Assembly (NCBI GenBank): GCA_905212975.1
Contig: CAJMGO010000004.1
Location: 4,044 to 68,043, forward strand
Direction: 5' to 3'
DNA: 64,000 bases
From: an uncultured Bacillota bacterium
GTDB taxonomy: Bacteria > Bacillota_I > Bacilli_A > RF39 > UBA660
Shown: piece after piece, positions 3,910 to 15,201 of the stretch
Layout of the letters: each line of letters starts with the position of its first letter
Numbering within the stretch: position 1 is the stretch's first letter
The notes under the pieces: model-generated
Told to the model about the DNA's origin: nothing
Seen by the model: only the letters and a program-made list of their open reading frames with translations
Databases searched by the model: none
Position numbers and translations under genes: made by a program

Positions 3910-6900
3910 ATGAAAAAGTTTTCAAATTTTGTGTGTAAAAACAGAATAGCAATTTTGATTGTTTGTTCATTTTTATTTGTATTTTCAATAATAGGTACTA
4001 AAATGACAAAAATCAATTATGATATTTTAGTTTACTTACCAAAAGATATTGAAACAGTAAAAGGTCAAGATATAATGACAGATGAATTTGGTATGGGTGC
4101 ATATTCTGTTGTTATGACTGATAATATGAGTTCTAAAGAAATTTTAGAATTGGAAGAAAAATTTAGAAATATTGATGGAGTAAGTAAAGTTATAAGTGCT
4201 TATGATGTAATAGGTACTAATATTCCAATAAATATGCTTCCAAATAATATAAGTTCAAAACTTAATAAAGATTCTACTGATTTGTTATTTGTTACATTCG
4301 ATGAATCTACATCATCTATTAAAACTATAGATGCTATAAGAGAAATGAAAAAAATAAACAAAGACGATGTTAGTATAAGTGGTATGAGTTCTATGGTATT
4401 AGATACTATGGATTTATCAGAAAGAGAAATATTTATATATGTTGTAATAGCTGTTATTTTATGCTTACTTGTTCTTGAACTTTCTTTGGATTCTTATTTA
4501 GTACCAGTATTATTGTTAGCAAATATTGGTATAGCTATTTTATATAATTTAGGATCAAATATTATATTTGGAGAAATATCTTATATAACAAAAGCATTGG
4601 TTGCCGTATTACAACTTGGTGTTACAACTGACTTTTCTATATTCTTATATCACTCATATGAAAATAAGAAGAAAGATATAAAAGATAAAAATGAAGCAAT
4701 GAGTGAAGCAATATGTGAAACATTTATATCAGTAACTGGTAGTTCACTTACAACAATTGTTGGATTTCTAGTTCTTTGTACAATGAATTTAACTCTTGGT
4801 AAAGATTTAGGGCTTGTAATGGCTAAAGGTGTATTTTTAGGAGTAGTATGTGTTTTAACTTTGTTCCCAAGTTTACTTCTTACATTTGATTCACTAATAG
4901 AGAAAACTAAACATAAAGCTATTAAATTTAGTTTTAAAGGAATAAATAAATTTGTAATTAAACATTATAAAGCAATATTTATTGTATTTATTATATTGCT
5001 TATACCACTTTATAAAGCAAATAGTAAGGTAAGTGTTTATTATAAAATTGATGAAAGTTTACCAAAAAATTTACATAGTATAGTAGCTAATGAAAAATTA
5101 AAAGAAAAATTTAATATAGTTTCTGCAGAAATTATATTAGTTGATAAAAATATGAAAGCATCTGATCAAGAAAAGATGGTATCAGAAATAGAATCATTAG
5201 ATGGCATTGATTTTGTATTATCATTTTCTAAAGTAGAAGAACTTGGTATAACAAGAAATATGTTAAGTGATGATTTATTAAAAGTATTTGAAAGTGATAA
5301 ATATCAAATGATGTTATTAAATTCTGAATATGATGTCGCTACAGATGAATTAAATAATCAAGTAGATAGTATTAATACAATAATAAAAAAATATGATAAA
5401 AATGCTATATTAGCTGGAGAAGGTCCGCTAATGAAAGATTTAGTTACAATAAGTGATGAAGATTTTAATAGTGTAAATACATCTTCTATATTCTTTATAT
5501 TAATAGTAATGTTATTTGTTCTAAAATCAGTATCACTTCCAATATTATTGATTTTAGCAATAGAAGCTGCAATATTTACAAATATGGGAATATCTTATTT
5601 TTCAGGTTCAGTACTTCCTTTTGTAGCGCCAATAGTTCTTGGAACAATTCAACTTGGAGCAACAATTGATTATGCAATTCTATTGACTACTAATTTTATT
5701 AATTTAAGAAAACAAGGAAATAACAAATTTGAAGCTATAGAAAAATCATTAGATTATTGTTCTAATTCGATATTTGTAAGTGGAATGTGTTTCTTTGCAG
5801 CAACATTTGGTGTTGGTTTATATTCTGATCTAGAAATGGTTGGATCATTATGTACATTAATATCTAGAGGTGCAATTATAAGTATGATAGTTGTTATAAC
5901 TGTACTTCCTTCAATATTATTAGTTTTTGATAAATTAATAATAAAAACTACTTTGGGTATGAAAGGAATGAATAAAATGAAAAAGAAAACAATAAATAAA
6001 GCGAAAAAAGTACTTGCTGCTTTTCTAATTACTTCATGTGCATTATTACCAAATGTATCTTATGCACTAACAAAAGAAGAAACTGTATATGCTAAATTAA
6101 ATAGTGATGGTAGTGTAAAATCTACTACTGTAAATGAACATCTAATAAATGATGAAAAATTAGATTCAATTATTGATTATTCAGATTTAGAGAATATTAC
6201 TAATACTAATAGTAATAATAAATTTAAATCAGAAAATACTCTTTTAACTTGGGATGCTAAAGGAGAAGATATATTTTATCAAGGTACAACAAAAAAACAA
6301 TTACCTATAACTGAATCTGTTACTTATAAATTAAATGGTGAAGAAAAAGATTTAAAAGACATATTAGGTAAAAGTGGGAATATTGAGATAAATATTACTT
6401 ACACAAATTTAGATAAACATAATAAATATATAAATGGAAGATATGAAAATTTATATACTCCTTTTGTTGTAGCTACATCTACAGTTATACCAGTAGAAAA
6501 TAATAGTGATGTAACAATAACTAATGGTAAGGTTGTAAATAATGGAAACTCTTATGTATTAGTAGGTTTATCATCACCAGGCCTTTATGAAAGTACTCGT
6601 ATAAATGATTTAAAAGATTTTAATAAAATAACTATAAAATATAATACTAAAAATTTTGAATTATCATCAATTTATTCAATTATTACTCCAAAATTAATAA
6701 GTAGTAAAGATATAAACAGTTTAGTTAACTTAAATTCTTTATACAGTAGTGTAGAATTATTACAATCTTCAATTGATAAAATAGAAGAAGGTTCAAAAAA
6801 AGCTTTAGATGGTATAACTAGTGTTGAAGATGGAAGTATTAAAATAAATGATAACTTAAAAATTGTATCACAAAAATTAGATGAAATAAAAAATGGTAGT

Positions 6901-7701
6901 ATTTCAGTAGATAATGGATTAGAACAAATAATACAACAATTAGATAAATCAAGTGAAGTTTTAAATAATAAAGAGACATTGCAAAATATTGAAAATATGA
7001 AATTATTAATATCAAAGAATGAAGAAGTTATAAAATCTCTTGAAACATCAACAAGTTCATTGAAAGAAAATTATACTAAATATGCTTTAGCAAATAAAAC
7101 ATATGAAGAAATATTAAATGCTCCAACAGAAATAGATTTATATAATATTAAATTTACTTATGAAAATACATATTCAAAAAATGTTGAAATGTTAACTCTT
7201 TTAAAAACAAATAATGAAGCTTTAAAAACATCTTTAAATACATTTAATGAAGTTAATACAAAAATAACTACAACAATAACAACATTAAAAACATATTTAA
7301 ACCAAATAAAAATAGGAACAAGTAAATTATCATCAGGTACTTCTCAATTAAGTAGTGGAATGACTACACTAAGTGGTAAGATGAATGAACTTACAGCTGG
7401 TACAACAAACCTTAAAAATGGAATGACTACTTTAAATGATGGAATAGTAACATTTAATAATGATGGTATAAAGAAATTATCAAGTATGAGTAATACATTA
7501 AAAACATACTCTACAAGAGTAAATTCACTAGTTAAATTAAGTGAAGAATATAAAACAATGAATTTAAGTGGTGATAATGAAGCTAGTAGTAAATTTATAC
7601 TTGTAATAGATGGTGAAAAGAAAGAAAACAAAGTAACTAAAAAAGAAGAATCAGCAAAAAAAGAAACCATTGCTGATAGAACAAAAAAATTATTTAAATA
7701 A
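3910..7701 (+). CDS. MMPL/RND-superfamily transporter fused to a long extracellular coiled-coil (YhgE/Pip-like heptad repeat) region
   Basis: 1263 aa. Two bundles of ~6 TM segments separated by soluble loops (MMPL layout). An extra TM (KKVLAAFLITSCALL) is followed by ~560 aa with xxxLxxG-type repeats (GTSKLSSGTSQLSSGMTTLSGKMNELTAGTTNLKNGMTTLNDG). Confidence 0.8.
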   Translation: MKKFSNFVCKNRIAILIVCSFLFVFSIIGTKMTKINYDILVYLPKDIETVKGQDIMTDEFGMGAYSVVMTDNMSSKEILELEEKFRNIDGVSKVISAYDVIGTNIPINMLPNNISSKLNKDSTDLLFVTFDESTSSIKTIDAIREMKKINKDDVSISGMSSMVLDTMDLSEREIFIYVVIAVILCLLVLELSLDSYLVPVLLLANIGIAILYNLGSNIIFGEISYITKALVAVLQLGVTTDFSIFLYHSYENKKKDIKDKNEAMSEAICETFISVTGSSLTTIVGFLVLCTMNLTLGKDLGLVMAKGVFLGVVCVLTLFPSLLLTFDSLIEKTKHKAIKFSFKGINKFVIKHYKAIFIVFIILLIPLYKANSKVSVYYKIDESLPKNLHSIVANEKLKEKFNIVSAEIILVDKNMKASDQEKMVSEIESLDGIDFVLSFSKVEELGITRNMLSDDLLKVFESDKYQMMLLNSEYDVATDELNNQVDSINTIIKKYDKNAILAGEGPLMKDLVTISDEDFNSVNTSSIFFILIVMLFVLKSVSLPILLILAIEAAIFTNMGISYFSGSVLPFVAPIVLGTIQLGATIDYAILLTTNFINLRKQGNNKFEAIEKSLDYCSNSIFVSGMCFFAATFGVGLYSDLEMVGSLCTLISRGAIISMIVVITVLPSILLVFDKLIIKTTLGMKGMNKMKKKTINKAKKVLAAFLITSCALLPNVSYALTKEETVYAKLNSDGSVKSTTVNEHLINDEKLDSIIDYSDLENITNTNSNNKFKSENTLLTWDAKGEDIFYQGTTKKQLPITESVTYKLNGEEKDLKDILGKSGNIEINITYTNLDKHNKYINGRYENLYTPFVVATSTVIPVENNSDVTITNGKVVNNGNSYVLVGLSSPGLYESTRINDLKDFNKITIKYNTKNFELSSIYSIITPKLISSKDINSLVNLNSLYSSVELLQSSIDKIEEGSKKALDGITSVEDGSIKINDNLKIVSQKLDEIKNGSISVDNGLEQIIQQLDKSSEVLNNKETLQNIENMKLLISKNEEVIKSLETSTSSLKENYTKYALANKTYEEILNAPTEIDLYNIKFTYENTYSKNVEMLTLLKTNNEALKTSLNTFNEVNTKITTTITTLKTYLNQIKIGTSKLSSGTSQLSSGMTTLSGKMNELTAGTTNLKNGMTTLNDGIVTFNNDGIKKLSSMSNTLKTYSTRVNSLVKLSEEYKTMNLSGDNEASSKFILVIDGEKKENKVTKKEESAKKETIADRTKKLFK

Positions 7702-7727: not shown

Positions 7728-7753
7728 GCTATAATCAATAATAGGTGAGAATT

Positions 7754-9016
7754 ATGTTTAATATTATATTTATAGTAGTTATTATTTTTATTATTGTAAA
7801 GCAGGTAAAATCTTCATCAAAAATAGATTCAAGTCCTGTTACAATGGGTAATATTAAAATACAAAATAGTTCACAATATACTCTTAATCCAATATATAAC
7901 TTAAATGATAAGCAATTACTTGAACAAATGGTAAGAAGTGAATTAAAAAAACAAAATGTTGAAAAGATAAAATTGAAATCCGTTGAGAATATTAAAATTA
8001 TATTAACTTGTATTTTTTCTTTATTAAATATTGTTTTTATTTGTTGTATATTTTTTCATACATTTTCTTATAAATATTTATTTGAAATTTTAAATATAAT
8101 AGTGTATATAATTATGATGAATAAAGTAAATACAGTAAGTTATTTAAAAAAACAAATTAAAGCAAGACCAGATGAAAAAATATCTTATATTATATCTTCA
8201 AAAGTTCAAGGCTCAGGTAAATCTTTACTATTTATAAGAATGATTATAATTATTGTTAGCTTTTTTTCAATTCTATTTTTTATAAAGCCACATACTTTTT
8301 ATGAAAAGACAGATGAAGGATATTATGTAAGATTTTATACATATGGAATCACTAATTTTGAAACAGTTACGATTCCATCTACATATAAAAATGAAAAAGT
8401 TATTGGAATAAGAGGAAAAGTATTCAGTAATATGAAACTTATAAAAGAAATTAATTTACCTGATTCTATTGAAGTTATAAGAGGAAGAGCATTTGAAAAT
8501 GACTATTCTTTGGAAAAGATTAATTTACCTAAAAATTTAACATATTTAGGTGGTAGTGCATTTAAGAATTGTAGCTCTCTTATATCAATAGAGATACCTA
8601 GTGGTGTTAAAGAAATAAATGGTAGTACTTTTGAAGGATGTTCAAGTTTAAAATATGTTAAATTACATGATAATATAACATCTATACATGGTTCAGTATT
8701 TAAAAATTGTTCAGATTTAGAAGAAATAAAATTACCAAAAAATATTACAGAAATAAGAGGTAATACTTTTGAAGAATGTACATCTCTTAAATCAATTGAT
8801 ATACCATATGGTGTTACAAGAATAGGTGGGCATGCATTTTACGGTTGTACTAATTTAAGGAGTGTTAAAGTTCCATCTACGGTTAAGGAAATAGGAAGTT
8901 CAGCATTTAGAAAGTGTCTTTCTTTAGATATTATTAATATCCCAGAAGATACAATTGTAAATGATAGAGCATTTAAAGAAAGTCCAACATTGGTATATAG
9001 GTATCAAGATGAGTAA
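7754..9016 (+). CDS. Membrane-anchored leucine-rich-repeat protein (BspA/LRR_5 type)
   Basis: ATG 7754 preceded by AGGTGA. ~4 TM segments in the first 180 aa, then about eight ~23-aa repeats (I..IP..V..Ig..AF..C..L). The stop overlaps the start of the next gene. Confidence 0.75.
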   Translation: MFNIIFIVVIIFIIVKQVKSSSKIDSSPVTMGNIKIQNSSQYTLNPIYNLNDKQLLEQMVRSELKKQNVEKIKLKSVENIKIILTCIFSLLNIVFICCIFFHTFSYKYLFEILNIIVYIIMMNKVNTVSYLKKQIKARPDEKISYIISSKVQGSGKSLLFIRMIIIIVSFFSILFFIKPHTFYEKTDEGYYVRFYTYGITNFETVTIPSTYKNEKVIGIRGKVFSNMKLIKEINLPDSIEVIRGRAFENDYSLEKINLPKNLTYLGGSAFKNCSSLISIEIPSGVKEINGSTFEGCSSLKYVKLHDNITSIHGSVFKNCSDLEEIKLPKNITEIRGNTFEECTSLKSIDIPYGVTRIGGHAFYGCTNLRSVKVPSTVKEIGSSAFRKCLSLDIINIPEDTIVNDRAFKESPTLVYRYQDE

Positions 9017-10739
9017 TATGAAATTTATACATTTATTATATGTCCCAACTATGGCATGTAATATGAATTGTAAATATTGTTATTTGGAAGATAATACAAA
9101 AGATGAAATGAAACAATATAAAGCAATTGATACATTAAAATATGCAATAAATAAATTTAAAAATAATAATGTGATGCCATTTAATATTTCACTCCATGGA
9201 GGAGAAGTAACAACTCTAAGTAAAGAAGATTTTCATGATATTATAGAGTATATAAGTAACTATTATAAGGAAAATAAAAATTTAATAGAAGAAAATGGTT
9301 TTAGAGTTGGTACCCCACATATAAAAACAAACTTATATAATTTAGAAAAACATATAGATACAATAAAAGAATTTAATGTATCTATTAGTGGTAGTTTGGA
9401 TTTACCTTTTTCTTTACATGATGAATATAGAATTACAAAAGGTAATAATAAAACATTAGATAAAATCTTAAAAAATATTGAATTATTAAATAAATTAGAA
9501 AATAAGAAAAAGGTATCTGCTACTATATTTAAAGAACACTATAATAGAATCGATGAAATAATAGAAAATATAGAGTATTTAAATAAAAATACATGTTTAG
9601 ATATGAATGATTTTAATTTCATGATAGGATTTGATTATAATTCTAACGGGTTATTAACTCCACTTACAGAAGAAGAACAAGTAGATTTCTTTAATAAAAT
9701 GCATGAACACTTTGATAATACAGATTTAGATTCAGGTGTTAATGGGGCATGGTTTAATGAATTTGGACCAGATTATTGTACTAATTGTGATAATTGTGGA
9801 GAAAAATTCTTTTTACTTGAAAAAAATGGAGATATTTATTCTTGCGTAAGAGGTCAAAAACATAAAGAATTTTATTATGGAAATATTTACAATAATACGA
9901 TAGAAGAAATACTAAATAATGCTTATGAAAAAATTATGAAAGCACATAATATGCAAAAGATGAGTGAAGAATGTAAAAATTGTGAGTATTTATATATATG
10001 TAAAACAGGGTGCCCATTTGTTAAAAATATTTATAATTCTAATAAGTCTTATACTTGCAAACTACAAAAAGAATTATATAAAAAAAGAAATTATGAACCA
10101 ATTAATGATAAGTCTATAATGTATGATTATATGTGTAAGATGCATCCTGATATAGCAGATGAATTTATAGTTAAAAATAATAATGAACATAAAAATTTAG
10201 AAGATTTAATAAAGGAAGATATACATTTAAAATATATATATGATCCAAACTCATTTATCTTAAGTATTGATGGAAATGAATATAATTTAGAGTCACAAAT
10301 ATTAAAAAAATCAAGGGAAATAGTATATATAACTAATAAAAGTAAAGTTGTTTTATATATAAGAAAAAATATAATAAATGAAGAATGTGAATATCCAGAG
10401 AACAATTCTGTTTGGATTATGCTATTAAGTGGAGATACAGTACAATATGGTGATGAAAAAAGAGTGAAACAAAGACATATAATGACACATCAGATATATA
10501 AAGGTGTACTTAATCAAATAAAATGTAATAAAGATGATTTTTATTGCTATGATATTACAAATTTATTAAAAGAATATAGTATATATCTATCAAATACTAA
10601 TCCAAATAATATATTTTTTACAACAGCATCACTTAGGGATTATCATTATTTAAAACAAAAAAATAATGCATATTACCATATAGAAGCAATAAATTTACCT
10701 TTTCAAAATATAGAGTTTAATTATTTAGAATGGAAGTGA
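9009..10739 (+). CDS. Radical SAM enzyme with SPASM-type auxiliary-cluster domain and ~220-aa unassigned C-terminal extension
   Basis: CNMNCKYC (CX3CX2C, nt 9057-9080), SLHGGEVT, then Cys-rich DYCTNCDNCGEKFF..GDIYSC.. and CKNCEYLYICKTGCPF. The start ATG overlaps the upstream stop (ATGAGTAA). The ORF-track start at 8961 is probably too far upstream. Confidence 0.85.
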   Translation: MSNMKFIHLLYVPTMACNMNCKYCYLEDNTKDEMKQYKAIDTLKYAINKFKNNNVMPFNISLHGGEVTTLSKEDFHDIIEYISNYYKENKNLIEENGFRVGTPHIKTNLYNLEKHIDTIKEFNVSISGSLDLPFSLHDEYRITKGNNKTLDKILKNIELLNKLENKKKVSATIFKEHYNRIDEIIENIEYLNKNTCLDMNDFNFMIGFDYNSNGLLTPLTEEEQVDFFNKMHEHFDNTDLDSGVNGAWFNEFGPDYCTNCDNCGEKFFLLEKNGDIYSCVRGQKHKEFYYGNIYNNTIEEILNNAYEKIMKAHNMQKMSEECKNCEYLYICKTGCPFVKNIYNSNKSYTCKLQKELYKKRNYEPINDKSIMYDYMCKMHPDIADEFIVKNNNEHKNLEDLIKEDIHLKYIYDPNSFILSIDGNEYNLESQILKKSREIVYITNKSKVVLYIRKNIINEECEYPENNSVWIMLLSGDTVQYGDEKRVKQRHIMTHQIYKGVLNQIKCNKDDFYCYDITNLLKEYSIYLSNTNPNNIFFTTASLRDYHYLKQKNNAYYHIEAINLPFQNIEFNYLEWK

Positions 10740-10743
10740 AAGT

Positions 10744-11106
10744 ATGTTTAAAGAACCAGAAACATATAATGATTTAATTAGAACAAAAAGGTGTTCTGAT
10801 TTAGCAAAATATTTTGATATACCTAAAGAAATACTAGAAGAAATATGGAATTTTTTATCTCAAAATCCAAAAAATAACGTATATGCATCAAGCAATAAAA
10901 TTAATTTATATACTAATAATAATTTGATAAAGGTTGAAACTTTACCAACTTCTTGTTCAAGTGTAAGTGGTATAAAAATATCAGATAAAGAATTTAAAAT
11001 ATATCCAATTTATACACCAAGTTCATCTAGAAATTATTATACATCAAGTGGCCGTTCTTCTAATAACAATAATAACAACAACAATAATAATAACAATAAT
11101 AACTAG
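10744..11106 (+). CDS. Hypothetical 120-aa protein with Ser/Cys-rich C-terminal region ending in a 14-Asn run
   Basis: Starts 4 nt after the rSAM stop. No signal peptide or TM. Tail ..TSCSSVSG..TPSSSRNYYTSSGRSS(N)14 is encoded by mixed AAT/AAC codons at 11062-11103. Confidence 0.5.
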   Translation: MFKEPETYNDLIRTKRCSDLAKYFDIPKEILEEIWNFLSQNPKNNVYASSNKINLYTNNNLIKVETLPTSCSSVSGIKISDKEFKIYPIYTPSSSRNYYTSSGRSSNNNNNNNNNNNNNN

Positions 11107-11108
11107 AC

Positions 11109-12125
11109 ATGATAAGAGTTTATGATAAAGCTCATTATAATAGATTAAATGAGTATAATGTAAAAATTAAAACTACATATAAAGATGATAAGTCATTACA
11201 TGTAGTGGATGATAATACAAAAAATGATATTGTTGATGGTATTAGATTAGAAAAAGAATATTATAAAGATAATAAATTAGTTTATAAAATAAAAGATTTT
11301 GATCCAAGAATTAAATATACATTTGTAACTAATAATGAAGATGATAAAATAATTAAATGCCCAAATTGTGGTATGAGTGATATTGGTAAAAATTTTAAAG
11401 AAGGATGTCCTTATTGTGGTACATATTATAATGTTGATTATGAAAATAAAAGTTTAGGCGCTAAATATCATTATGATAGAGCTATTAAAGAAAGCAAATA
11501 TTTATTTATAACTTTTGTTGTTGATTTAATTATGAGTTTTTTAATAATGTTTTGCTATATAAAAATAACAGGAAGAACTTTTAATGTTTATGATATATCA
11601 AAAATATTTATTTATACAATAATACTTGCTGCAGCTCTTTTTTATGTATTTTATATGCTAAATGCGTTTATTATAACTTTACCTGTAAAAATATATAAAG
11701 ATAAAATTAATAAACGTCAAATAGAGTTTTGGAACAGAATGAAAGATATAAATAAAAATACATTTTATAATAATCTTAATTATGAATTACAAAACTATTT
11801 TTATAAAGATATTCCAAATATAATTGATTATGATATTATTGATTATATAGAATTTAAGGAACAATATGATGAAAAGCATAATTTATATATATGTGTTAAA
11901 TTGAAATTGAGAATTGTAAAAATAGAAAATAATAAAATAATGTCTTATGAAGAGGTAAAGAATATTAAATTAGAAAAAAATGATGTAAAAATAGAACAAT
12001 TAAATAGTGGAATTAATGTAATAAAATGTAGAGGTTGTGGAGCATCAATCGATGTAACACAAAATGAATGTGAATATTGCGGTGTAAAGACAAATTATTT
12101 ACAAGAATGGTATCTAATAAAGTAA
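11109..12125 (+). CDS. Double zinc-ribbon membrane protein with Tim44-like-looking C-terminal domain
   Basis: CPNCG..CPYCG ribbon, two TM segments (YLFITFVVDLIMSFLIMFCYI; IFIYTIILAAALFYVFYMLNAFII), C-terminal CRGCGA..CEYCG..EWYLIK. Starts 2 nt after the upstream stop, with no SD. Confidence 0.6.
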   Translation: MIRVYDKAHYNRLNEYNVKIKTTYKDDKSLHVVDDNTKNDIVDGIRLEKEYYKDNKLVYKIKDFDPRIKYTFVTNNEDDKIIKCPNCGMSDIGKNFKEGCPYCGTYYNVDYENKSLGAKYHYDRAIKESKYLFITFVVDLIMSFLIMFCYIKITGRTFNVYDISKIFIYTIILAAALFYVFYMLNAFIITLPVKIYKDKINKRQIEFWNRMKDINKNTFYNNLNYELQNYFYKDIPNIIDYDIIDYIEFKEQYDEKHNLYICVKLKLRIVKIENNKIMSYEEVKNIKLEKNDVKIEQLNSGINVIKCRGCGASIDVTQNECEYCGVKTNYLQEWYLIK

Positions 12126-12249: not shown

Positions 12250-14154
12250 ATGTTTTTTAAAAATATACATTCAAGAATTAGAGTGGTACTTTTATTAATC
12301 ATAATGCTATTTTTATGTGTTATTATTAAGGTATTCTATATACAAGTTATAAGTTATAAAAAACTTTCTAATTTAGCTTATGATCTTTGGAATAGAAATC
12401 TTCCTATAGAAGCAGATAGAGGAAAAATATATGATAGAAATGGTGTTGTACTAGCTGATAACAAAACTACAGTTTCTCTTGTAATAATTCCAAATCAAGT
12501 AAAAGATAAAAAAGAAGTATCTGAAAAATTATCAGAAATATTAAATGTTAGTTATGATGAAATTTATGAACATGTAAGTAAAAAAACTTCTATCGAAAGA
12601 ATTCATCCGGAAGGAAGAAGATTATCTTTTTCTATAGCAGATAAAATAGATTCACTAAATTTAGATGGGGTATATCTCTTAAAGGAATCAGCTCGTACAT
12701 ATCCATATGATAAATTATTATCTCATGTACTTGGATATGTGGGAATAGATAATCAAGGACTTAGTGGTTTGGAACTTATGTATGAAGATTATTTAACAGG
12801 TAAGTATGGATCAATAAAATATGTATCTGATGCTAAGGGAAATAGAATGGAATTATCAGAAACATATGTAGAACCACAAGATGGTATGAATATAAATTTG
12901 ACAATAAATTTTGAAATACAGCAAGCATTAGAAAGAGAATTAGATAATGCAGTAAGTAGATACAATCCTGATCAAGCAATTGGTATAGTAATGAATCCAA
13001 ATACTGGAGAAATTTTAGCTATGTCATCTCGACCAAATTTTTCTCCAACTAATTATAAGGATTACTCAAAAGAAGAAATAAATAGAAATTTACCAATATG
13101 GGCAACATATGAACCAGGTTCAACTTTCAAAATAATAACACTCGCAACAGCACTAGAAGAAAAACTAATAGATTTAGATAAAGATACCTTTACAGATACA
13201 GGAAGTGTTAATGTAGCTGGTGCCAGAATAAAATGTTGGAAACATGGAGGTCATGGTACACAAACTTTATTGCAAGTTGTAGAGAATTCTTGCAATCCAG
13301 GTTTTGTATATATTGGACAAAAAATAGGAAAAGAGACTTTATTTAAGTATATTAAAAACTTTGGTTTTGGAAGTAAAACTGGTATTGATTTAAATGGAGA
13401 AAGTAAAGGAATTTTATTTAAAGAAGAAAATGTAGGACCTGTCGAACTTGCAACAACATCATTTGGTCAAGGAGTAAGTGTTACTCCAATGCAACAAGTA
13501 GTAGCTGTATCTGCAGCAATTAACGGTGGATATATTTATCAGCCTTATATAGTTAAAAGCATAAATGAACCTGAAACTAATTCAGTAATACTTGAAAATA
13601 AATCTAAAGTATTAAGAAAAGTAATAAGTGAAGAAACTAGTGAAAAAGTTAGATATGCACTTGAAAGTGTCGCAACGAATGGGTCTGGAAGAAATGCTTT
13701 TATAGAGGGATATAGAGTAGGTGGTAAGACAGGTACAGCACAAAAAGCAGTAAATGGATCTTATTTAGTAGGAAATTATATTACTTCATTCATTGGCTTT
13801 TTACCTGCCAATGATCCTAAAGTTGTAGTTTATGTAGCAATAGATAATGCTAAAGGTGTAACACAATATGGTGGTACTGTTGCAGCCCCTATAGCGCGTA
13901 ATTTAATGGTAAGTATTATAGATATATTAAATATAGAAAAACCAAGTGGTGGAAGTAGCAAAAAATATAATTGGTATGATAAGAAATATGCAACTGTAAA
14001 TGATGTAACAGGATTAAGTTTAAGTGATGCATTAAATTCTTTAAAACAATTTAAAGTTGAATATAAGGGGAATGGTGATACTGTTATCCATCAATCTCCA
14101 AAAGGTGGAGAATCAATATATGAAGGTGAAACAGTAATGCTTTATTTAAATTAG
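12250..14154 (+). CDS. Class B penicillin-binding protein (SpoVD/PBP2B-type transpeptidase) with C-terminal PASTA domain
   Basis: N-terminal TM, dimerisation region, STFK, SCN and KTGT motifs, single PASTA-like C-terminus. Sits upstream of mraY. Confidence 0.9.
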   Translation: MFFKNIHSRIRVVLLLIIMLFLCVIIKVFYIQVISYKKLSNLAYDLWNRNLPIEADRGKIYDRNGVVLADNKTTVSLVIIPNQVKDKKEVSEKLSEILNVSYDEIYEHVSKKTSIERIHPEGRRLSFSIADKIDSLNLDGVYLLKESARTYPYDKLLSHVLGYVGIDNQGLSGLELMYEDYLTGKYGSIKYVSDAKGNRMELSETYVEPQDGMNINLTINFEIQQALERELDNAVSRYNPDQAIGIVMNPNTGEILAMSSRPNFSPTNYKDYSKEEINRNLPIWATYEPGSTFKIITLATALEEKLIDLDKDTFTDTGSVNVAGARIKCWKHGGHGTQTLLQVVENSCNPGFVYIGQKIGKETLFKYIKNFGFGSKTGIDLNGESKGILFKEENVGPVELATTSFGQGVSVTPMQQVVAVSAAINGGYIYQPYIVKSINEPETNSVILENKSKVLRKVISEETSEKVRYALESVATNGSGRNAFIEGYRVGGKTGTAQKAVNGSYLVGNYITSFIGFLPANDPKVVVYVAIDNAKGVTQYGGTVAAPIARNLMVSIIDILNIEKPSGGSSKKYNWYDKKYATVNDVTGLSLSDALNSLKQFKVEYKGNGDTVIHQSPKGGESIYEGETVMLYLN

Positions 14155-14182
14155 AATAGTTTTAATATTCTAATTTTTTTTT
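14151..14182 (+). terminator. Hairpin plus T-run between the PBP gene and mraY
   Basis: Stem TTAGAATA / TATTCTAA (14151-14158 / 14166-14173) followed by T9. AT-only stem, so it may act as an attenuator rather than a full stop. Confidence 0.55.
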
Positions 14183-14208
14183 ACATATTATTTATTAGGT
14201 GATGTAAT

Positions 14209-15201
14209 ATGTTAATACTTACGAAGTCAGTTTTAATTTTAGTAATTAGTTTTATTTTATCAGTACTTATAGGACTTGTCTTAATTCCTATATTAAGAAA
14301 ATTTAAAGCAAGTCAATCATTAAGCATTTACCTAGAAGAACGTCATAAAAGTAAAAAAGGTACTCCGACAATGGGTGGATTAATATTTATAATTACACCT
14401 ATTATAGTTATTACCATATTATATTTACTTGGTAAAATAGAATTATCTTTTAATTTTGTCATAATAATTTTTACATTTTTAGCATATTCACTTATTGGTT
14501 TTATAGATGATTATTTAATAATAAAGAGGCATAATAATAAAGGTTTAACAGAAGGACAAAAATTTTTTATGCAAGTAATAGTTGCTGTTATATATTTTTA
14601 TCTATTTATGAAAGCAAATAATGAACCATTACTTTGGATACATGCTTTAAACTTAAAAGCTGATATTGGCTGGTTTTATGGATTATTTATACTATTTGTG
14701 CTTGTAGCTTCATCAAATGCAGTTAATCTAACAGATGGATTAGATGGTCTTGCAGGAGGTCTTTCTTTTATAGCTGTACTAACATTTGCAATTATAACAT
14801 ATTCTACAGGCTGGCTTTATGGATATGAAGAAATTGCCTTATTTTTATTTAGTATAAGTGGAGCAGTACTAGGATTTTTAGTATTTAATTCTAATCCAGC
14901 AAAAGTATTTATGGGTGATACTGGATCACTTTCTCTTGGAGCCTTACTTGGTTCAGTTGCAATTTTAACGAGGCATGAAATACTTCTTATAGTAATAGGC
15001 ATTGTATTTGTTATAGAAACTCTAACTTGTATTATTCAAATTATATATTATAAATTTACTCATAAAAGATTTTTCCCAATGACTCCTATACATCATACAT
15101 TTGAAAAAATAGGATGGGAAGAAAAAGACATTGTAAAATTATTTTGGATAATAGGATTAATAGGATCAACTATTGGAATTATATATGGGGTATGGATATG
15201 A
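14209..15201 (+). CDS. mraY: Phospho-N-acetylmuramoyl-pentapeptide transferase
   Basis: 330 aa polytopic protein. Motifs KKGTPTMGG, DDYLII, NAVNLTDGLDGLA, FMGDTGSLSLG, PIHHTFE. Confidence 0.95.
   Translation: MLILTKSVLILVISFILSVLIGLVLIPILRKFKASQSLSIYLEERHKSKKGTPTMGGLIFIITPIIVITILYLLGKIELSFNFVIIIFTFLAYSLIGFIDDYLIIKRHNNKGLTEGQKFFMQVIVAVIYFYLFMKANNEPLLWIHALNLKADIGWFYGLFILFVLVASSNAVNLTDGLDGLAGGLSFIAVLTFAIITYSTGWLYGYEEIALFLFSISGAVLGFLVFNSNPAKVFMGDTGSLSLGALLGSVAILTRHEILLIVIGIVFVIETLTCIIQIIYYKFTHKRFFPMTPIHHTFEKIGWEEKDIVKLFWIIGLIGSTIGIIYGVWI

Follow-up and report, generated by a model that had tools for sequence, protein, structure and literature searches.

A conserved C-terminal domain defines a clade of radical-SAM/SPASM enzymes encoded beside proteins with asparagine-run tails

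Newly discovered modifications of peptides and proteins come chiefly from radical-SAM/SPASM maturases, and the substrates of these enzymes are normally found by way of an N-terminal leader and an RRE. In the RRE-dependent maturases (AlbA, SuiB, CteB (PDB 5WGG) and PqqE/PqqD), the enzyme is encoded beside a ribosomal substrate and owes its specificity to an accessory domain, an N-terminal winged helix that binds the N-terminal leader. A second point of reference is anSME (PDB 4K36-4K39; TIGR03942), which combines a radical-SAM core with a full SPASM domain carrying two auxiliary clusters, has no N-terminal RRE, and acts on a protein substrate through the motif C/S-x-P-x-R found in sulfatases. 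DynA and DarE, the maturases of dynobactin and darobactin, process short precursors with Trp-containing cores, and DynA forms a C-C cross-link at the beta-carbon of Asn. Finally, the FxsB-type cyclophane-forming maturases are radical-SAM/SPASM enzymes with an additional C-terminal domain. The system described here has the same general layout as the RRE-dependent maturases, namely an enzyme beside a presumed ribosomal substrate together with an accessory domain, but here the accessory domain is a predicted C-terminal beta-sandwich and the candidate recognition element is a C-terminal Asn tail on proteins of 76-1000 aa, a phage tail fibre among them. With anSME it shares the core, the full SPASM domain, the lack of an RRE and, presumably, a protein as substrate, whereas the sulfatase motif is absent; DynA and DarE, in turn, have neither a C-terminal beta-sandwich nor Asn-run substrates.

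The enzyme was found in a window of 64,000 nucleotides (the whole stretch of DNA that was analysed, approximately 23% GC), where it belongs to a four-gene cassette consisting of an LRR_5 membrane protein, the enzyme, a 120-aa protein and a 338-aa zinc-ribbon protein. The features of the cassette are as follows.

7745..9016, + strand: BspA-type leucine-rich-repeat membrane protein, upstream of the enzyme (PF13306, 1e-60)
9009..10739, + strand: radical-SAM/SPASM maturase gene with C-terminal extension, 576 aa from the ATG at 9009
9009..10076, + strand: radical-SAM core and SPASM auxiliary-cluster domain, delimited by Pfam, NCBIfam and the end of the 4K36 alignment; last residues ..SYTCKLQKELYKKR
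10077..10736, + strand: extension, a 220-aa family-specific domain, recognised by its conserved motifs and predicted fold
10744..11106, + strand: 120-aa partner protein, the presumed substrate
11062..11103, + strand: 14 consecutive Asn codons, both AAT and AAC, that end the 120-aa protein
11109..12125, + strand: 338-aa protein with two zinc-ribbon motifs (weak zinc-ribbon Pfam matches) and predicted transmembrane helices, downstream

A mechanical ORF call from the first in-frame ATG yields a reading frame of 592 aa (8961-10739, +); since the database protein P0230, which is 99% identical, is annotated with a length of 576 aa, translation probably begins at nt 9009 (ATG; MSNMKF...). In the 592-aa numbering, the Pfam matches are Radical_SAM (residues 27-202) and SPASM (residues 276-342), the NCBIfam SPASM model TIGR04085 extends to residue 366, and DynA and anSME, which are the full-length models that fit best, stop at residues 373-376. 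The enzyme belongs to the radical-SAM superfamily, scoring 41.4 bits with PF04055 against a threshold of 29.5 and carrying the CxxxCxxC motif near its N-terminus as CNMNCKYC (residues 16-23 of the 576-aa enzyme), and it belongs equally to the SPASM subfamily, with 26.9 bits for PF13186 (threshold 21.5) and 46.4 bits for TIGR04085 (threshold 27). Cys 257, 263, 279, 322, 325, 331, 335 and 350 show little or no variation across the family, and the final conserved Cys of the SPASM domain lies within ..SYTCKLQ.., at nt 10056-10058. Because the SPASM cysteines and the model ends both fall there, a boundary between core and extension near nt 10075-10080 is correct, and the first-pass annotation, which had described an extension of about 220 aa past the SPASM domain from approximately nt 10075, is borne out by the 220 residues (nt 10077-10736) that follow the domain ends. 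No RRE (PqqD-like winged helix) was found at the N-terminus of the enzyme, where the CxxxCxxC motif is already reached at residue 16.

Within this subfamily, the enzyme falls short of the cut-offs of all curated NCBIfam equivalogs, including anSME, DynA, FxsB and others. The best-scoring curated model is that of DynA (NF041298), with 98 bits against a cut-off of 450; anSME (TIGR03942) gives 91.8 bits against 349, and DarE (NF038005) a score far below its cut-off of 650. For FxsB (TIGR04269) the score is 36.9 bits against 370, with only residues 32-184 aligned, so that the likeness to FxsB-type enzymes drawn in the earlier annotation is a mere analogy. Searches of PHROGs and PADLOC returned no match for the enzyme, nor for the 120-aa and 338-aa proteins. 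In the PDB, a phmmer search with the single full-length enzyme found nothing and only a profile search gave matches, among which anSME is the closest solved structure (4K36, E 2.6e-14) and CteB the third best. The alignment to 4K36 covers profile positions 14-355 only, and the chain ends approximately 17 residues later, leaving the 220-aa domain without a counterpart and agreeing with the earlier statement that relatives stop soon after the auxiliary-cluster domain.

The extension is a real, conserved and previously undescribed domain that defines one radical-SAM/SPASM clade. It matches no family in Pfam (even at E<=10), NCBIfam, PHROGs, PADLOC or, by profile, among PDB sequences, and no known domain, in particular none unrelated to substrate binding, emerged by sequence or by fold once BFVD was added to these resources. 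AlphaFold2 modelled the extension alone, from a 90-sequence alignment, with a mean pLDDT of 90.4 and a pTM of 0.79. The predicted fold begins with some 45 residues of short helices, a helical linker at approximately nt 10089-10240, and continues as a beta-sandwich that has two long hairpin strands, with a helix-loop-strand at its C-terminus. When SPASM and extension were modelled together, the two domains were equally confident and the pTM was only 0.50, which gives no reliable placement of the extension with respect to the core. We also considered an intramolecular isopeptide- or ester-bond domain (Ig-like; Lys/Asn/Asp or Thr/Gln), and rejected it given that the Foldseek match to 8fha was at noise level. 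The richness in Lys, Asn and Tyr previously remarked upon is measurable (N 11.8%, K 10%, Y 9.5%), but since the core is equally rich in Asn and Lys (N 12.9%, K 10.7%, Y 6.5%), it is mostly a matter of genome bias. Its four Cys residues are not conserved, and so the extension has no extra Fe-S cluster.

An alignment of 19 sequences, taking in members from Bacilli, Clostridia, high-GC bacteria and phages, reveals 16 residues of the extension that are identical in 19/19: Y133, G134, R138, K140, H143, T191, T192, R196, H199, Y200, N206, Y209, H210, N215, P217 and F218 (numbering of window:10050-10736), with L50 of the linker likewise invariant. They are organised in the universal motifs YGDExRxKxxH, TTxxxRxxHY, NxxYH and NLPF, which fit no known cofactor motif. 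The first-pass description of the extension as having no recognisable motif thus stands in the sense that no database family matched, and fails in that the extension has a very strong motif set of its own. The accompanying statement that it carries no metal-binding signature is unsafe, considering that three invariant His are present, with acidic and Tyr neighbours. These same residues give rise to the main rival to the reading we prefer: the extension could be a second catalytic domain, possibly metal-dependent through the three His and the Asp/Glu/Tyr around them, which would carry out a follow-up step on the partner's tail after the radical reaction (cleavage, cyclisation, deamidation or oxidation, for example). 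With sixteen invariant polar and aromatic residues, three His among them, the extension is indeed more conserved than is usual in a docking domain, and these residues would be just as suitable for a catalytic or metal site. It nevertheless fits no catalytic family by sequence or by fold, and a histidine brace of the LPMO type, which needs an N-terminal His, is impossible here; on balance we regard a catalytic extension as unlikely, though a serious contender.

The conservation just described holds over a wide range of genomes. When 1.84 billion cluster representatives were searched exhaustively by phmmer, with only the extension as query, no more than 94 proteins matched, and the full-length ones (P0123, P0140, P0142, P0146, P0147 and P0163; 588-616 aa) are all radical-SAM/SPASM proteins with the extension at the C-terminus. 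The remaining matches are fragments, apart from an LRR chimera (P0193) and a eukaryotic-looking tandem repeat (P0162; 810 aa, 12 matched stretches) that we rejected as spurious, and by this search the extension is thus exclusive to the C-terminus of the radical-SAM clade. A pattern scan using one genome per species found relatives in at least 307 species genomes. Among the best 80 of these 307, gut MAGs predominate, under the labels Bacilli, Tenericutes, Mycoplasma sp. CAG or Clostridium sp. CAG, and [Eubacterium] cellulosolvens also occurs; the clade is further present in high-GC bacteria and in Mu-like phages of Campylobacter, the extension being kept across genomes from 23% to 64% GC. No close homologue lacking the extension was found in the same context: the extension is fused in frame to the enzyme at all of the 80 best genome loci, and among the 120 best hits of a search with the core only, 116 are intact, extension-bearing proteins of 575-594 aa, the other four lying on contigs of at most 3.6 kb and looking like fragments. 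Under the standard code, 78 of the 80 loci have a clean single frame; the two others are L052, with one TAA in frame, and L084, where in-frame TGA codons stand at Gly positions and the frame is uninterrupted if they are read as Gly.

These counts bear directly on a reading in which the extension is non-functional, be it a compositional tail of a low-GC genome, a gene-fusion artefact or a decaying region. Such a reading would find encouragement in the extension-only searches, which at first returned only broken genes, with products of 130-445 aa that are truncated, frameshifted or nonsense-interrupted (the first four contexts held an in-frame TAG, two different frameshifts and an insertion), as if pseudogenisation were pervasive. 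Because the core search returns intact proteins, however, these truncated matches are an artefact of retrieval and not biology. The 78 clean loci, the hundreds of intact proteins, the invariant residues and the high-confidence model refute the non-functional reading, to which we attach practically no weight, and explanations in terms of pseudogenes, programmed recoding, an alternative code or systematic decay were rejected on account of the same intact loci and proteins. Every hit listed lacks a functional name, the sole name in use being the generic 'SPASM domain-containing protein', and literature searches on poly-Asn or Asn-rich precursors of radical-SAM enzymes, on extensions at the C-terminus of SPASM proteins, and on phage tail fibres in connection with radical SAM found no description of the family. 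Nitrilobacillin, which came up in the literature, is unrelated, its enzyme being asparagine-synthetase-like.

We then turn to the partner proteins. A homologue of the 120-aa protein lies directly 3' of the enzyme in approximately 75 of the 80 genome loci, and also at distant loci, so that of the cassette genes whose co-occurrence with the extension had been proposed as a check, this third one is found almost everywhere with it. The protein belongs to no Pfam or NCBIfam family. It consists of a conserved N-terminal domain, an IYPIYTPSS motif (in the family form, (I)PHY-x-PSS), a Ser/Gly-rich linker and the C-terminal Asn tail, and within the Bacilli clade its N-terminal 55 or so residues are well conserved. 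Among ORFs of at least 100 aa in the 64-kb window, its Asn run is the only one of six or more residues; given this, and the persistence of the run in high-GC relatives, it is not compositional background. Across 78 distinct homologues the run is 5-20 residues long (median 13) and is followed by R in 51, by nothing in 18, by G in five and by S in two. L052 and L054 are only apparent exceptions, in that the Asn run is still encoded behind a nonsense codon or frameshift. In more distant bacteria, the partner at L089 (64% GC) is a 160-aa protein that is translationally coupled to the enzyme and ends in N18+G, those at L091 (58% GC) and L088 end in N10+G and N9+G, and at L092 an ORF just upstream of the enzyme ends in N14+G; L090 departs from this pattern, its candidate partner having only NNN. 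The bodies of these distant bacterial partners can barely be aligned, and nothing in them is invariant apart from M1, F37 and the Asn run. An Asn-tailed protein thus adjoins the enzyme in nearly all loci.

A similar arrangement is seen in phages. IMG/VR contains 19 contigs with a relative of the enzyme, and the Campylobacter-type Mu-like elements have the gene order tail fibre, 211-aa protein, enzyme with extension. In Campylobacter phage CAM-P21 (MW462221), for instance, the enzyme is a 585-aa 'hypothetical protein', and two genes upstream sits a tail fibre (PF12571, E 4e-40) whose C-terminus reads ...AISYAPSGSTNNNNY, the final letters being SGSTNNNNY. At 17 of the 18 distant phage loci, the upstream genes encode one protein or two, 72-1000 aa long, with an Asn-run end (NNNNY, NNNNN, GNNF, GNNS, SNNNNNNRG or similar); L108 is the exception, with upstream proteins that lack an Asn run. 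P0163 is located among Mu-like portal and tail genes, and the 173-aa protein adjoining it ends GGGGGGSGPNNNF.

Adjacency is by itself no proof of a substrate relationship. The bodies of the partners are unrelated, as a comparison of the 120-aa protein with a tail fibre makes plain, yet the 16 residues of the extension remain unchanged, which leaves the tail, a C-terminal stretch rich in Ser, Thr and Gly that closes with an Asn run, as the feature that the partners have in common, and we infer that the Asn-run tail is the likely target of the enzyme. A role for the extension in recognition is plausible, because the Asn tail is conserved in the partner, the enzyme is without an RRE and the extension is not a winged helix. 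More specifically, the extension may be the family's substrate-handling module for Asn-run tails, in place of the missing RRE, a reading that we hold, judging from sequence comparisons and predicted folds, at roughly an even chance. The suggestion made in the first-pass annotation, of a module that recognises a substrate or partner, is thereby retained as plausible in view of the Asn-tailed partners and the absent RRE, and modified in that the element recognised would be the tail and not the 120-aa protein as such. One could instead imagine that the extension is an RRE-like leader-binding module directed at the folded N-terminal domain of the 120-aa protein, a view with which the lack of an RRE in the enzyme and the well-conserved N-terminal 55 or so residues in the Bacilli clade are both in keeping. 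That domain, however, is hardly alignable in the distant bacterial partners and is missing from the phage tail fibres, where the invariants of the extension are nevertheless unchanged, and the predicted beta-sandwich is not the winged helix of an RRE; we therefore consider it quite improbable.

If the extension does handle the Asn-run tail, the radical-SAM core would cleave SAM reductively and abstract a hydrogen from a residue in the partner's tail, while the surface formed by the invariant Tyr, His, Arg, Lys, Asn and Thr residues of the extension would capture the amide-rich tail and position it at the opening of the active site. The extension would in this way supply substrate specificity, as the RRE does in other maturases. 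The chemistry might be an attack at the beta-carbon of Asn, as in DynA, or at the alpha-carbon; hydrogen abstraction from Asn has a precedent, since DynA forms its C-C bond at the Asn beta-carbon. Epimerisation, or cross-linking to nearby Ser/Thr or aromatic residues, would be equally possible. Put more generally, and tentatively, since we rate it somewhat below even, the family may install a so-far unknown modification on C-terminal poly-Asn tails, both of a small protein in gut Bacilli and of tail fibres in Campylobacter Mu-like and other phages, with the extension as a new module that either reads the tail or acts on it catalytically, possibly in a metal-dependent manner. Should this hold, radical-SAM protein modification would gain a new class, one in which a homopolymeric element serves for recognition and as substrate, in cells and viruses alike. 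The radical-SAM/SPASM maturase type is already known; what is new here is the accessory domain and the substrate signature, that is, a large family built on an undescribed C-terminal domain and tied to an unusual and easily recognised C-terminal Asn run. In temperate Campylobacter phages the enzyme is encoded within the tail-fibre module, where it could have an effect on how fibres assemble or how the host is recognised.

The flanking genes of the cassette have a narrower distribution. The four genes are syntenic in nearly all Bacilli loci, and in uncultured gut Bacilli of the kind labelled CAG/Tenericutes the family belongs to the core and is syntenic; the LRR gene is found upstream in Bacilli and Clostridia loci, and the position of the zinc-ribbon gene is conserved in most Bacilli loci only. 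In the co-occurrence profile proposed earlier, genes 1 and 4 therefore keep company with the extension only in the Bacilli/Clostridia clade, unlike the gene for the 120-aa protein. Such tight packing and synteny of four genes in the Bacilli clade, together with the frequent use of beta-sandwiches as interaction modules, could suggest that the extension serves for oligomerisation or for docking to the LRR and zinc-ribbon membrane proteins, with no relation to the substrate. We think this very unlikely, as L088, L089, L091, L092 and all phage loci have neither the LRR nor the zinc-ribbon gene and yet keep the extension with its invariant residues, which dissociates the extension from both of these neighbours.

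Viral loci with a relative of the enzyme, together with one bacterial locus, concern the putative substrates of these radical-SAM/SPASM enzymes:

L100 and L109-L113: IMG/VR viral contigs, 94-263 kb, about 31% GC
L034, 13853-14218: stand-alone second paralogue (121 aa) of the 120-aa protein, with 12 Asn and then Arg at its C-terminus
L114, 5250-8758: locus of Campylobacter phage CAM-P21 (MW462221)

Upstream of the enzyme, the large viral contigs (L100, L109-L113) encode two proteins, one 869-1000 aa long and the other a small one of 84-109 aa. Both of these end in an Asn run in L109 and L111, and the small one only in L100, L110 and L113, the C-termini including, for example, HGNNNS, SNNNNNNLAGNV and SSNNNNNNRG. 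One enzyme may therefore have several substrates in these contigs. Some genomes likewise encode two putative substrates, since in the L034 locus about 5 kb separates the second paralogue from the cassette upstream of it, and no radical-SAM gene adjoins this paralogue. The CAM-P21 genes run in the order tail fibre (PF12571), 211-aa protein, 585-aa radical-SAM/SPASM protein and DUF1353 protein, all annotated as hypothetical with the exception of the tail fibre. The tail fibre terminates in STNNNNY, and the 585-aa protein bears the same C-terminal domain as the 220-aa extension of the enzyme in the window.

A different genetic code appears to be in use in one relative, the L084 locus, whose enzyme is the following:

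L084 (CAMVNA010000010.1), 5972-7684: enzyme homologue

The whole 14.7 kb of this locus reads as code 25, in which UGA specifies Gly. The enzyme homologue has five in-frame TGA codons, every one aligned to Gly, and the same holds for the single TGA of the 120-aa homologue. In the LRR homologue 9 TGA codons are aligned to a residue, which is Gly for 7 of them, while another 8 lie in alignment gaps. Reading through TGA gives 10 ORFs of at least 150 aa, compared with 2 under table 11. Despite the code-25 reading, this cassette is 65% identical to the Bacilli-type cassette, and its 120-aa homologue ends in 17 Asn followed by Arg.

Searches with the 220-aa extension or its profile listed only proteins of at most 445 aa, which are fragments and broken genes. 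Because the core (the radical-SAM and SPASM part) as query yields intact family members of 575-594 aa, of which hundreds exist, the lengths in the extension-query lists are not to be taken as biology. Genes are also interrupted in three individual loci. Both the enzyme gene and the Asn-tail gene are affected in L052 (Clostridium sp. CAG:465; positions 4860 and about 6250), the former by an in-frame TAA and the latter by a TAA immediately ahead of SNNNNNNNNNNNNNR; L054 has a frameshift immediately ahead of the Asn run, at about 7050, and the enzyme of L001 an in-frame TAG at 5953. These interruptions are local decay or assembly errors. In the chimeric 477-aa database protein P0193, an LRR_5-like N-terminal half runs straight into the latter half of the radical-SAM core, followed by SPASM and a shortened extension; the chimera probably originated in a deletion that fused cassette genes 1 and 2.

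The cassette in the window is flanked by three further genes:

3910-7701: MMPL/RND-type transporter (PF03176)
12250-14154: ORF directly downstream of the cassette, by its sequence a candidate class B penicillin-binding protein
14209-15201: next ORF downstream, by its sequence a candidate MraY

If the two downstream candidate identities (region 12250-15201) are right, the cassette sits at the edge of a dcw cluster. Homologues of the first of these ORFs adjoin the cassette in L023, L042 and L054 too. The C-terminus of the transporter is extended by about 590 aa that include xxxLxxG heptad repeats (TIGR03057), and homologous pieces occur close to the cassette in several relatives (L023, L024, L059, L070).
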